Positions 50,438 to 55,217 of a stretch of 64,000 nt of DNA are shown here, one piece after another. The number at the start of each line of letters is the position of its first letter. Within the stretch, counting starts at the first letter, position 1. The stretch covers positions 12,821 to 76,820 of IMG/VR virus record IMGVR_UViG_3300042991_000131. One strand, written 5' to 3'. A program made the translations under genes and the position numbers. Source of the stretch: a virus. Under the pieces are notes generated by a model. That model searched no databases. It was not told the DNA's origin and worked only from the letters and a program-made list of their open reading frames with translations.

Positions 50438-50653
50438 ATGCATGCCAACGACTTCATCACGAAGCGTGAAAAGCTGTGCAAGGCTCGGCATCGCGAGATA
50501 ATCACGCAGGCTATATTCACCATGCAGATGCATCTGCTCTTTTGTGAGGCTCAGCTGAGCAAGGGCTGGGATGACGACGCCGAGAAAAGCGACGAGGTCT
50601 ACGAGACCTGGGTCGACCAGCTTGAGGCAGAGATAGAGGCGCTGAGCAAATAA
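50438..50653 (+). CDS. Small early protein
   Basis: RBS; acidic C-terminus. Confidence 0.55.
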   Translation: MHANDFITKREKLCKARHREIITQAIFTMQMHLLFCEAQLSKGWDDDAEKSDEVYETWVDQLEAEIEALSK

Positions 50654-50702
50654 CTTGTAGGCCAGGTCGGATTATCCGGCCTGGCCTTAAGTGTCGAACC
50701 CC
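50651..50702 (+). repeat. Early-region intergenic hairpin element, copy 2 (divergent)
   Basis: AGGCCAGGTCGGA-TTA-TCCGGCCTGGCCT-TAAGTGTCGAACCC. Confidence 0.6.
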
Positions 50703-50722
50703 AAAGCCGAAAGGGCTTACCC

Positions 50723-51073
50723 ATGTTCATCCTCACCCGTTCCACCAATCGCCCTGGCCTGACCGATCCGGTCGGAGTCGGTGGCCCCGTCCAGCTGAGT
50801 TCCTTCCTCAATAAGCTGCGCCCGCGTGATCGCAGCGCGATAATCGCCCTGGAGCCTGGCCAGCGCGCTCCCGCGATCCTCTGCCCGTTCGATGGCGACA
50901 TCGGCTTCCCGGTCGAGGTCTTCCGCTGCCCCGGTGGCAACGAGCATGACGCACACTTCAACGGTGCGCTCAAGGCTGCGCGTGAGGGTGTGCCTTCGCC
51001 ACTCAATAATCTCACGATGCGTCAGGCCAGGATCGTGAACAGCGCCTTGAGTGTTGCAAGTATGAAGCACTAA
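50723..51073 (+). CDS. Early protein
   Basis: Lies between two hairpin elements. Confidence 0.55.
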   Translation: MFILTRSTNRPGLTDPVGVGGPVQLSSFLNKLRPRDRSAIIALEPGQRAPAILCPFDGDIGFPVEVFRCPGGNEHDAHFNGALKAAREGVPSPLNNLTMRQARIVNSALSVASMKH

Positions 51074-51136: not shown

Positions 51137-51454
51137 ATGCTCACCCCACTCAATGCCAAGTACGCCAAAGCCAAGCAGCCTGTAATCTGCTTTGAAGACT
51201 ACCAGTTCGGGCTTGGAACTGCAATACAGATCTATGATCGTGCTGAACGTGAGTGTGTCTGTACTGCTAGCGTGAATGTCGGTGGACTTGAATCTGGGCA
51301 CATTGCAATCAAAGACTATAGCGAGAATGAAGGCATACTTGCCTGGCTGATCGAGAACAAGATTGTTAGCAAACCAGTTCGGTTTGTTGGTTCCGGTTAC
51401 GTCGAGATTCCGATCTGCAAGTTACTTGTTGATTGTAAGGCTGGTATTGAATGA
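51137..51454 (+). CDS. DUF4313-like protein
   Basis: IKDYSENEG.L.WL.....V......SGYV motif. Confidence 0.55.
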   Translation: MLTPLNAKYAKAKQPVICFEDYQFGLGTAIQIYDRAERECVCTASVNVGGLESGHIAIKDYSENEGILAWLIENKIVSKPVRFVGSGYVEIPICKLLVDCKAGIE

Positions 51455-51786
51455 TTATCAAATGGCTAGGTGAGGCAATAACTGGCTTAGAGACTGGCGA
51501 GATACGCAGAGTAAGAACATATACAGGATTCAAGATACTGCTTGAGTTACGCGATGGCAGCGGCGATCTTGGCTGGTTCGATTTAAAGGATATCGAACCG
51601 GCTGATACCGATGCTAAGGTGCTGTTAACTAGATTAAAGCGTATTGCGCACTATAGACGCAAGATGTGCGATATGTGTAACGGTACTGGTCGTATTAGTA
51701 ATCACAAGTGTCCAGTGTGCTTCGCTGGTGAAGTAGTAGACCTTGAACAATTAAAGGTAGCCAATGAACATCCACTCTCCCGCTGA
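51451..51786 (+). CDS. Protein with DnaJ-type Zn finger
   Basis: CDMCNGTG...CPVC. Confidence 0.5.
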   Translation: MIIKWLGEAITGLETGEIRRVRTYTGFKILLELRDGSGDLGWFDLKDIEPADTDAKVLLTRLKRIAHYRRKMCDMCNGTGRISNHKCPVCFAGEVVDLEQLKVANEHPLSR

Positions 51787-52000
51787 AGTAATCGAAACGA
51801 TGTGTCTCTTGACACATGACGCCAATGATGTGTCAATTGAGGTTGAGTACGAGACGATTATCGTCAAGGCACAGAAGGTGAACAGTTTCTCGATGCGCTG
51901 GTCATATGAGGGCTACGGCAACGAGCGCGTGCGACAGATTGCTAAAGAGTATCACTTAGTGCTGATGAAAGCTCAGCGTGAAGAGAATAAGCCTTACTAA
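51764..52000 (+). CDS. Hypothetical protein
   Basis: Operon packing. Confidence 0.5.
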   Translation: MNIHSPAEVIETMCLLTHDANDVSIEVEYETIIVKAQKVNSFSMRWSYEGYGNERVRQIAKEYHLVLMKAQREENKPY

Positions 52001-52007
52001 AGGAAAC

Positions 52008-52344
52008 ATGACACAAACTATACAATCAATACGTGTGCTTACAACAGCATATAAGCTAGGCTACAGAATAACAAAAGCTGGTATAGCGTTGGGTCCTAAT
52101 TTTAATCTGCTCAGGCAAGAAACACCAGATTAAAGTACATAGACTACAAGCATATCAGAAGTATGGTGACAAAATATTTGAGAAATACTTAGAAGTTAGA
52201 CACAAGAATAGCAATAAAATGGACAATACTTGGGATAATATTTTATTAGGCACTCATAGTGCCAATATGATGGATGTACCTAGAGAAGTTAGAGTTGAGC
52301 GTGCAATTAATGCCAATAATCTAAAATTGGCAACTCCGTACTGA
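52008..52344 (+). pseudogene. Frameshifted HNH endonuclease
   Basis: 41-aa ORF ending TAA, then +1 frame VHRLQAYQKYGDKIF...VRHKNSNKMDN.WDNI homologous to 24838-25359. Confidence 0.75.
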
Positions 52345-52454
52345 TGAGTCCTGAGTGGACGAAACATGGTTAGCTTGAACCGAGTGGTGCGTTACTAAAG
52401 GGTGAAACCCTTTGACCCTCACCTAAATAGCTAATCATGTATACGGCAGAGAGT
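52333..52454 (+). ncRNA. Type I hammerhead ribozyme
   Basis: Stem I CCGTA/TACGG, CTGATGA core, stem II GTCC/GGAC, GAAA, 11-bp stem III, GUA cleavage triplet ending 52441. Confidence 0.9.
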
Positions 52455-53146
52455 AATCGATGGTGAACGTGCTATAAGCACCGGATGGCCTCCCTGGCTG
52501 TTCACTGACCAAGATTACTCGAAGCAAAGTGGCCATAAGCCAGCCACTGAAAACATATAGGCATAGGATTAAGGCAGCAGGATCAAAGACGTAGTGCCGG
52601 AACAAGGGTACAAGATACGGGAAACAAGTTGGGACAATCCGAAAGGAGGGAGCCTGCTGAGTTACCGGTTGCCTGTGACGCTACATAATCTTTGGGAACA
52701 TACGGTTGGCTTAGCCAACAAACCGAAGCCGGTGACATGGCTGCGGTGCTGCTGATTGCTGGGAACGGTGTAGCTGACGCTACACGCCTGAGACCCTATC
52801 CGGCTTAGTCACCCAATCAGTGACCGGACAAATATGGGATACGAGCGTCAACTCGCGGCCCTAGATAATAGAGAAGATGGTAGGACCTACTATCTAATCC
52901 ATCAGTGGGGACGCGCCGATAGTCGCAGGCCCACATTAATCTCTAAGGTGCTAGTAAGTATATTGTGGAAGCTGTAATCGCGATTCCCTTAGGTGGAGCA
53001 GCGACCAGTCAGCGGACTTCTGGCCTAGTACCTGACAAGCTAATCGGCCGCACGGTTGGCCTCTGTTAATGAGCGGAAGGTGTACCGGATGTTTGCCGTG
53101 TCCGGAACCATAGACAGGATTAGGGCAACCTGATTCAACGGCGTTT
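52451..53146 (+). ncRNA. Candidate large structured ncRNA (~700 nt)
   Basis: No ORF of 60 aa or more; many nested helices, GNRA loops, two possible pseudoknots; between ribozyme and tRNA array. Confidence 0.6.
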
Positions 53147-53229
53147 CGGGGTATGTTGGAATAGCAGACAAAACTGATTTAAAATCAGTCGGCAGAAATG
53201 CCATCCGAGTGCAAGTCTCGGTACCCCGA
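53147..53229 (+). tRNA. tRNA-Leu(TAA)
   Basis: CGGGGTA/TACCCCG, loop TTTAAAA, long variable arm, no encoded CCA. Confidence 0.85.
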
Positions 53230-53234
53230 TTAAT

Positions 53235-53318
53235 GCCTGTATGGCGTAACTAGCAGCCGCGATAGCTTTAGGAGCTATTGTCCGTAAGGACGTGTCAGTG
53301 CAAGTCTGACTACAGGTA
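53235..53318 (+). tRNA. tRNA-Leu(TAG)
   Basis: GCCTGTA/TACAGGT, loop TTTAGGA, long variable arm. Confidence 0.85.
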
Positions 53319-53325
53319 ATCTTTT

Positions 53326-53400
53326 GGGCCGTTCGTACAACGGTTAGTACACGGGTCTTATAAGCCTGTTACGATTGTTCGACTCAATCACGGCCTACCA
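53326..53400 (+). tRNA. tRNA-Ile(TAT)
   Basis: GGGCCGT/ACGGCCT, loop CTTATAA, TTCGACT, encoded CCA. Confidence 0.85.
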
Positions 53401-53411
53401 CAAGGATAATC

Positions 53412-53879
53412 ATGGCAGTCTGGAGACAAACAACACTGGTAGATTATTTAGAAGTTAGCGACGAGGGTGGACTTAGAAACAAGCACACCAAGTTACCATA
53501 TGAACTGTCTATGACTAAGAGCGGATACTACAGTATCCACGTGACAGCACATGAGAAATATTTCCTGCACGTGCTTATAGCCGCAGCTTTCTTAGGTCCG
53601 GCAAACGGATTAGAGGTTGATCATAAGGATAGAAATAAGCGCAATAATCGGCTGACTAATCTTTGGTATAGAACTCACGCTCAGAATTGTCAGAATAGAA
53701 TTAGCAATAATAAGGGCGTATTAAATAATACTACAAGGTTAACTGAGAATGACGTTAAAGAGATTAGAAGGCAGTGCCTATTTGGCATTACTTATGCAGA
53801 ATTAGGTAGGAAGTACAAAATGCACCCTGATTCAGTCAGAAGTGCAGCAGTCGGTAAAACTTGGTCACATATTAAGTAA
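53412..53879 (+). CDS. HNH homing endonuclease with C-terminal HTH
   Basis: LHVLIA.AF...VDHKDRNKRNNRLTNL. Confidence 0.85.
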   Translation: MAVWRQTTLVDYLEVSDEGGLRNKHTKLPYELSMTKSGYYSIHVTAHEKYFLHVLIAAAFLGPANGLEVDHKDRNKRNNRLTNLWYRTHAQNCQNRISNNKGVLNNTTRLTENDVKEIRRQCLFGITYAELGRKYKMHPDSVRSAAVGKTWSHIK

Positions 53880-53925
53880 CCAGCAGCTAATTGCTGCATA
53901 ACGCCGTAAGGCACTAGGATAGAAA

Positions 53926-54474
53926 ATGTCGATTAACCCATCACGCGAACAGACCCGTCTGAACAAGACGATCCAGCAGATCAAGGACACGGAAAAGGAA
54001 GTGGCCAGCCTCACTTCCAAGGCGACCAACATCCGCGAGCACTTCCACGCGCCCACCGCGACCCTCAACACGAACCTGGCCAAGATCGACGCCCTCGTCG
54101 TCGCTCGCCAGGACGCGCTGCTGCGTCTGGAGGCCAACGCCTATCCCGATGACGATAATCGTCAGATGGACGCGGCCCAGGTCAAGGCTGCCGAAGAGTC
54201 GATCAAGAGGCTGGCCGAGGAAAACAGCTGCATTCAGGGCGAACTGAATACCCTGCACGCCACCTTCGACGCCCAGCTCGCCGAGCTGATGCATGCCTCG
54301 GGCATCCACGACCTGGCCATCTGTGCGCTCCTGGTCACCAAGCAGCAGCAGGAGGCCGCACTCCAGAGGCAGGAGGCCGATTACCCGGTGAAGCTGAAGC
54401 GCCACCTGAACCGTTGCCGCCGTCAGGGCATCGCCGATGCGCGGCTCAGCGCGCCGAAGAAGCGTGTCGCGTGA
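53926..54474 (+). CDS. Coiled-coil early protein
   Basis: GC3-rich helical ORF with RBS. Confidence 0.65.
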   Translation: MSINPSREQTRLNKTIQQIKDTEKEVASLTSKATNIREHFHAPTATLNTNLAKIDALVVARQDALLRLEANAYPDDDNRQMDAAQVKAAEESIKRLAEENSCIQGELNTLHATFDAQLAELMHASGIHDLAICALLVTKQQQEAALQRQEADYPVKLKRHLNRCRRQGIADARLSAPKKRVA

Positions 54475-54683
54475 ACCTCTACAAGACACATGGCAAGGGA
54501 GCAGCCATGGGTTCGCGCTGCGTAATCGCGGCGCCGACCGAACTCCGGGCCAAACAGATCCACTATCTGGAGACTGGCTACATCTGCGAGCGGATCGAGT
54601 GCGTACAGACGGAACTGGAGGCCAGCATCGCTGGTAATCCGCTGTCTGAATACTGCTTCTTCATCTGGAACGGGGACTACTGA
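54471..54683 (+). CDS. Hypothetical protein
   Basis: GTGA coupling. Confidence 0.5.
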   Translation: MNLYKTHGKGAAMGSRCVIAAPTELRAKQIHYLETGYICERIECVQTELEASIAGNPLSEYCFFIWNGDY

Positions 54684-54964
54684 TGCAGCCACTTATTGAT
54701 GACTCTACGGTAGCCGAGGTACTGATCCTGTCTGGCTACCGTAGGGTCAGCAATAAGTTCAAGACTGTTGCCAGAGTCGATAGGCCGGGTCCATGCAAAC
54801 TAGGTTCCGATTACTACCGCAGAGTCAACAGTCGTGATGCAGTCACGGTATCGGCAAATGTATACAACCTCATGCGCAATTGCCGAGACTGTGATTACTG
54901 TCCGCTACATCCTTTAGTTAAGGTACTCCATGTTAATCAAGTTATCAAAAATACGCGATCATAA
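54683..54964 (+). CDS. Hypothetical protein
   Basis: TGATG coupling. Confidence 0.5.
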   Translation: MQPLIDDSTVAEVLILSGYRRVSNKFKTVARVDRPGPCKLGSDYYRRVNSRDAVTVSANVYNLMRNCRDCDYCPLHPLVKVLHVNQVIKNTRS

Positions 54965-55217
54965 CTTTATATTATCCGATCGTGTCAAGATGCAGCTGAA
55001 TGCCATCGGCCCCGGTCCGATTGTCTCACCATTCGGTAATGAATACATCATACTGAGTGGTCGATTAGATGTGGCTGTTGCTAAGATGCAGTTGCACTCA
55101 GAGATTGAGTGTCATATCGTCGAGTCAGAAGCCGCGGAAAACGTCATCTTCACCATCCAACCCCTTGAACCCCATGACAACAATCCCAATCAATCAGATA
55201 GCACCGTTCAGCGTTAA
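54930..55217 (+). CDS. Stand-alone ParB/Srx N-terminal-like domain
   Basis: IKLSKI...PIV.....YIILSG....AK.....EIECHIVE. Confidence 0.45.
   Translation: MLIKLSKIRDHNFILSDRVKMQLNAIGPGPIVSPFGNEYIILSGRLDVAVAKMQLHSEIECHIVESEAAENVIFTIQPLEPHDNNPNQSDSTVQR

Follow-up and report, generated by a model that had tools for sequence, protein, structure and literature searches.

The window analysed here, meaning the whole stretch of 64,000 nucleotides, belongs to a 76.8-kb IMG/VR virus record from an uncultured phage. On its + strand, a frameshifted HNH_3 endonuclease gene of low G+C content (51978..52344; 35-39% G+C) runs over two frames, with the frame shift between ~52086 and 52133, and a complete type I hammerhead motif (52336-52446) overlaps the end of this pseudogene. 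Positions 52336-40 are the last codons of the HNH_3 frame, and its TGA stop codon (52342-44) falls inside the CUGAUGA box of the ribozyme core. The HNH_3 frame and the preceding 78-aa ORF both end in ...PY-stop (CCG TAC TGA and CCT TAC TAA). The motif is followed on the same strand by ~700 nt in which no ORF exceeds 56 aa (52447..53145), by genes for tRNA-Leu(UAA), tRNA-Leu(UAG) and tRNA-Ile(UAU) spaced 3-6 nt apart (53146..53400; ARAGORN and Rfam), and by an intact 155-aa HNH_3 endonuclease gene (53412..53879). The Rfam run at gathering thresholds returned the Ile tRNA alone, and it took the Rfam E-value run and ARAGORN to reveal the two Leu tRNAs, which have long arms. All neighbouring annotated genes and tRNAs lie on the + strand, and in a scan neither promoters nor terminators turned up on that strand from 50.5 to 53.1 kb. 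Thus, processing would be needed to free the individual RNAs.

Core, helices and stem III insert

The sequence-only reading had described a canonical type I hammerhead with a long structured insert in stem III, and our analysis bears this out: core and helices are well formed, the motif is far beyond chance expectation, and it matches a family of phage hammerheads. All conserved core positions are present, and the elements read earlier lie at the positions first given. The 5' strand of stem I, CCGUA (52336..52340, +), pairs with UACGG (52442..52446, +); it is followed by C3-A9, CUGAUGA (52341..52347, +), by stem II, GUCC/GGAC with the 5-nt loop UGAGU (52348..52360, +), closed by G10.1-C11.1 (G52348-C52360), and by G12 A13 A14 (GAA, 52361..52363, +) with the adjoining A at 52364. 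Stem III opens with the pair A15.1-U16.1 (A52364-U52440) and consists of 12 consecutive pairs, its 5' strand reading A-CAUGGUUAGCU (52364..52375, +) and its 3' strand AGCUAAUCAUG-U (52429..52440, +). Its single G-U pair had been recognised before, and the helix is one pair longer than first counted; the insert capping it is therefore 53 nt (52376..52428, +) and not 55. The GUA triplet, G16.2-U16.1-A17, occupies 52439-41, with A52441 (+) at H17, a position that is not G. The strand order gives a type I topology, with stem I open and stems II and III closed, and the three helices measure 5, 4 and 12 bp. The hammerhead consensus, together with our descriptor scan, places the predicted cleavage between 52441 and 52442, so that the 3' strand of stem I would begin the 5'-OH product.

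Stem III spans 77 nt. In folds its insert holds internal loops, a GAG.GGU/ACCCUC pairing and the apical hairpin UAAAGGGU-GAA-ACCCUUUG, and the two elements proposed earlier for this region, the inner hairpin AAAGGGT-GAA-ACCCTTT and the GAG/CTC pairing, are both part of the minimum-energy fold. Catalysis probably does not require the insert, whose effect would be to lengthen stem III.

Minimum-energy folding of 113-131 nt recovers the three-way junction (z = -2.9 and -4.1), and in a 271-nt context the weak 5-pair stem I is out-competed by other pairings. A stem II of 4 bp and a stem I of 5 bp, followed by unpaired bases, have lengths compatible with a contact between loop II and stem I; no such tertiary contact for fast cleavage can be assigned at the window hammerhead. 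The short, readily displaced stem I and the lack of a recognisable contact would both suit an inactive relic or look-alike, that is, an intact motif that does not reach a useful cleavage rate in the cell, as would the state of the upstream gene, already a pseudogene. We regard such a relic as quite improbable, since not one core position deviates and a 12-bp stem III joined to a matching stem I would very rarely arise by chance.

This rarity was assessed with a descriptor that specified the core and a minimum of 3 pairs for each of stems II and III and of 4 for stem I. Applied to both strands of the window (128 kb), it returned a single locus, 52336-52446, while 100 first-order Markov shuffles gave a mean of 0.01 loci under loose criteria and none with comparable stem lengths. 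A search with hammerhead models, proposed earlier as a check, gave a divided result. The Rfam hammerhead models found nothing, either in the whole window at the gathering cut-off or in 51800-53500 at E<=10. A covariance model derived from 72 sequences of the family described below matched the window solely at the hammerhead site (E = 4.6e-6), but the insert caused it to mis-align stem III; the short alternative to this helix that it offered contains mismatches and would put a G at position 17, and was rejected. As the Hammerhead_1 model (RF00163) accommodates a short stem III only, the silence of Rfam on the window copy is probably due to its 77-nt stem III, against the usual 14-25 nt. Such variants are probably under-counted, since curated models miss long stem III inserts.

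A family of phage hammerheads

The exact core and stem II, including the loop UGAGU, recur in three IMG/VR contigs (L002-L004), each with a short stem III hairpin. When the loop was left free, the same core and stem II were found at no fewer than 119 IMG/VR loci, and 103 hammerheads could be resolved in IMG/VR contigs among the matches listed. The usual member among these 103 has a stem I of 6 bp, GUC as its cleavage triplet and a stem III spanning 14-25 nt; most have a plain 6-bp stem I and then an A-rich tail. An alignment of 72 distinct members (among the matches listed) is 96% paired, and its covariation score is 0.62, compared with 0.12 in shuffles (reached in 0/500) and at most 0.09 when the partners are slid. 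Covariation across the family is seen in stems I and III.

The window copy departs from the usual member in having A at H17, where the family usually has C. This departure could again be read as a sign of decay; GUA triplets and 5-pair stems I occur as minority variants in other members (among the matches listed), which argues against a relic. Long stems III also recur, with nine of the 103 listed members exceeding 35 nt, and in folds the hammerheads of two other phages (L057, 61 nt; L114, 69 nt) have the same kind of long stem III with an inner hairpin. The insert is thus rare and not new, and the architecture, with its 5-pair stem I and GUA triplet, lies at the edge of the family and not outside it. 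A further match (L113, near 9315, +), whose stem I is the same as that of L034, may have a stem III of 268 nt; should this be genuine, the hammerhead would be split by a large insertion.

Rfam models capture this family in part. Among eight family loci run against RF00163, two hammerheads scored above the cut-off. One, in L035, is the hammerhead found by pattern, with a short stem III and the same core (35.9 bits against a cut-off of 34); the other, in L057, is an additional hammerhead and not the patterned one. For L003 and L004 the best Rfam match is the RAGATH-1 hammerhead, at 35 bits, below its 56-bit cut-off.

The GCAGA bulge that the sequence-only reading had offered as a loop II contact finds no support among family members. 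In alignment A2 (columns 2 and 76-77), an A precedes the 5' strand of stem I in more than 90% of sequences and A or AA follows the 3' strand in more than 70%, and these conserved flanking bases may be the docking site of loop II. Just outside its own stem I, the window hammerhead carries C and AG in place of the family's A and A/AA. Five contigs (L009, L057, L073, L083 and L123) each hold two to four family hammerheads within a few kilobases, resembling the multi-hammerhead operons reported in PMC3088659.

Almost all of the 103 listed members lie directly 3' of a stop codon, with the next gene typically no more than ~75 nt away, and tRNAs are near only two of them. These habits of the family speak for an ordinary intercistronic processing hammerhead in the window as well, one that ends and stabilises the upstream mRNA, with the ~700 nt beyond it being a functionless leader of the tRNA operon or decayed sequence. 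We consider this explanation rather unlikely. The longest ORF-free stretch downstream of any of the 103 listed members is 574 nt, so that none matches the ~700 nt of the window. That 574-nt stretch belongs to one of a pair of related hammerheads (L067:2734-2798 and L080:1460-1524), which have a GCAUGAAGUU in common on their downstream side, with 354 and 574 nt free of ORFs beyond it; the two may head further ribozyme-led non-coding RNAs.

We also considered a mobile module of HNH gene plus hammerhead. None of the other 103 listed hammerheads has an HNH_3 homologue within 1.5 kb; the ribozyme is therefore not a general passenger of HNH cassettes, and such a module is unlikely.

Related contigs and the downstream RNA

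BLAST of 51700-53450 against 50,697 phage records gave no match, and a protein-based search for related loci with the 111-aa, 182-aa and 78-aa neighbours found none in viral or genome contigs; the 182-aa protein is an orphan, and P0005 and P0006 are the two homologues of the 78-aa protein. Viral and genome contigs contained no exact match to patterns taken from the first tRNA, from the segment after the cleavage site or from the RNA's 3' part, a single metagenome scan gave four chance matches, none with a hammerhead, and an exact look-up of the spurious ORFs inside the downstream RNA returned the window's own record alone. The downstream RNA also has no sequence in common with the other stretches of DNA scanned.

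Contigs from four metagenome runs could be aligned to window 51400-54000, allowing an indirect comparison. One of the runs, from wastewater, is labelled 'RNA-Seq'; it is probably DNA and consists of contigs, and is uninformative on RNA ends or expression. A stretch of 358 nt (51999-52356), with the bulk of the HNH frame and the hammerhead's 5' part, is skipped by a contig of this run, which joins 51998 to 52357. Over 52357-52584 this contig agrees with the window at 226/228 bases, while upstream only 87/213 letters align at >=80%. A second contig of the wastewater run diverges before 52430; just ahead of that point its letters retain AAAG..CUUUG from the inner hairpin, around a different loop. 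A sediment contig retains the HNH end and the core to 52351, as well as 52439-52459 exactly, with the flanking sequence replaced on both sides; it has 42 letters in place of the window's 87 nt at 52352-52438, a length that would fit an ordinary short stem III. Together with the manner in which the HNH frame ends, the skipping contig suggests that a homing-endonuclease cassette was gained or lost at the edge of the ribozyme. This relative counts against an active ribozyme and for a relic: lacking the HNH stretch, it aligns again only from 52357, and with the 5' half of the hammerhead uncovered it may lack that half.

As judged from these alignments, the RNA segments are almost unchanged among relatives while the flanking genes diverge, which stands against the ~700 nt being a functionless leader or decayed sequence. 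This near-identity could stem from recent exchange by way of the flanking homing endonucleases and not from selection. A decayed protein gene was sought in 52435-53204, and no ORF there has a Pfam match.

The changes in length among relatives fall at the tips of helices. In the window, the helix 52583-89/52689-95 encloses ~105 nt. Two relatives replace this subdomain (52585-52693) by 6 and 12 letters and close the same helix, one with GGAAAC, read as a G-C pair and a GAAA loop, and the other with CAGAGAAACCUG, in which one A-U pair has become C-G, a compensatory change. In a third relative, the interior of the first helix (52460-52512) is replaced by 77 letters, and the helix strands (52451-58/52512-19) are kept. 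The pattern is again at odds with a functionless leader, and it suggests that the replaced segments are optional peripheral domains typical of structured RNAs. From the sequence comparison, the 700-nt stretch is likely a structured RNA.

Two further results favour a simple intercistronic ribozyme. Even with permissive filters at E<=10, the 700-nt stretch has no Rfam match, the models for GOLLD (RF01998) and ROOL (RF03087) included, and beyond its first 150 nt the folding z-scores are unremarkable (-0.6 to -2.4); over most of the stretch they are no better than those of coding DNA. In the apparently coding regions 50500-50950 and 54550-55000, 300-nt windows give z = -4.2 to -5.7, like the hammerhead region.

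The first helix of the stretch, in which GAGUAAUC (52451-58) pairs with GAUUACUC (52512-19), forms in folds and bears on a possible control of cleavage. Its first four letters are the GAGU (52451-54) that had been read earlier as extending stem I by pairing with ACTC. This ACTC/GAGT pairing is possible; it re-uses C52336 and G52446 of stem I and is therefore an alternative to the 5-bp stem and not an addition to it. A conditional ribozyme can thus be drawn on paper, in which GAGU pairs either with the upstream ACU(C) or within the first helix, and the downstream fold governs cleavage. We hold this to be very improbable: neither the family nor the relatives support it, for most family members a plain 6-bp stem I suffices, and the minimum-energy fold favours a different 2-bp extension of stem I, CU/AG (52334-35 with 52448-49), with C52447 bulged.

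Proposed processing and known systems

The explanation that we favour, and consider probable, is that an active hammerhead splits the upstream mRNA from an RNA island and sets the 5'-OH end of the 700-nt RNA, with RNase P setting its 3' end. Embedded in a long rightward phage transcript, the ribozyme would fold its weak 5-bp stem I along with stems II and III, and self-cleavage would follow at the A52441/U52442 junction. Of the two products, the upstream one, an mRNA ending in the HNH pseudogene, would retain the whole ribozyme as a stable 3' cap bearing a 2',3'-cyclic phosphate. The downstream product would have U52442 as its first base, with a 5'-OH, and be easily released, because it is held by stem I only; it would open the ~700-nt non-coding, probably structured RNA that runs into the three tRNAs. 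RNase P acting at the first tRNA (53145/53146) would then produce the 3' end. For the types of end and for the RNase P step, this scheme relies on the established chemistry of hammerheads and of tRNA processing. More tentative, though possible, is the wider proposal that hammerhead and RNase P together excise a new class of ornate RNA of ~700 nt, which with the three tRNAs would make up an HNH-flanked island mobile between phages, the 5'-OH aiding the stabilisation or use of the RNA.

Hammerheads have been described in phages, in intergenic regions and operons (PMC3088659), and the window copy is a well-formed member of this known ribozyme family. It shares with the type I hammerheads of phages and prophages (RF00163, CL00010; PMC3088659) the core, the GUCC/GGAC stem II with a 5-nt loop, an open stem I and a location in a phage operon immediately past a stop codon. 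It differs from them in its stem III (77 nt against 14-25), in A at H17, in a stem I of 5 pairs rather than 6, and in being followed by ~700 nt of non-coding RNA and tRNAs instead of by the next gene. The RAGATH-1 hammerhead (RF03152) is likewise of type I with a short stem I, and L003 and L004 share the loop II UGAGU with the window. No match to RF03152, which includes a 5' hairpin and linker, was found in 51800-53500 at E<=10, and the hairpin upstream of the window hammerhead (52311-16/52327-32) differs from that of RAGATH-1 in size and spacing and lies inside coding sequence.

For the larger arrangement, the closest parallels lie in other RNA classes. HDV-like theta ribozymes flank phage tRNAs (PMC10879173), and the window hammerhead resembles them as a small self-cleaving ribozyme in a phage tRNA unit, which it presumably processes; the ribozyme class is different, and here ~700 nt separate the hammerhead from the first tRNA. 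The large RNAs GOLLD and ROOL adjoin tRNAs in phages (PMC5737381), and they (RF01998, RF03087; PMC5737381, PMC12286853) resemble the downstream RNA only, which is likewise several hundred nt long, of phage origin and beside tRNA genes. The downstream RNA differs from them in matching neither model at E<=10, and in the literature consulted we found no hammerhead leader described for GOLLD or ROOL. As a ribozyme, the window copy adds little, as phage type I hammerheads are well known and a long stem III is present in at least two other phage contigs. The noteworthy features are the long stem III, the stop codon within the core and an RNA island headed by a hammerhead; in the last of these, the ribozyme marks what is likely the precise 5' terminus of a phage RNA of ~700 nt, uncatalogued and lying by tRNA genes, and so delimits a defined candidate transcript, 52442-53145.
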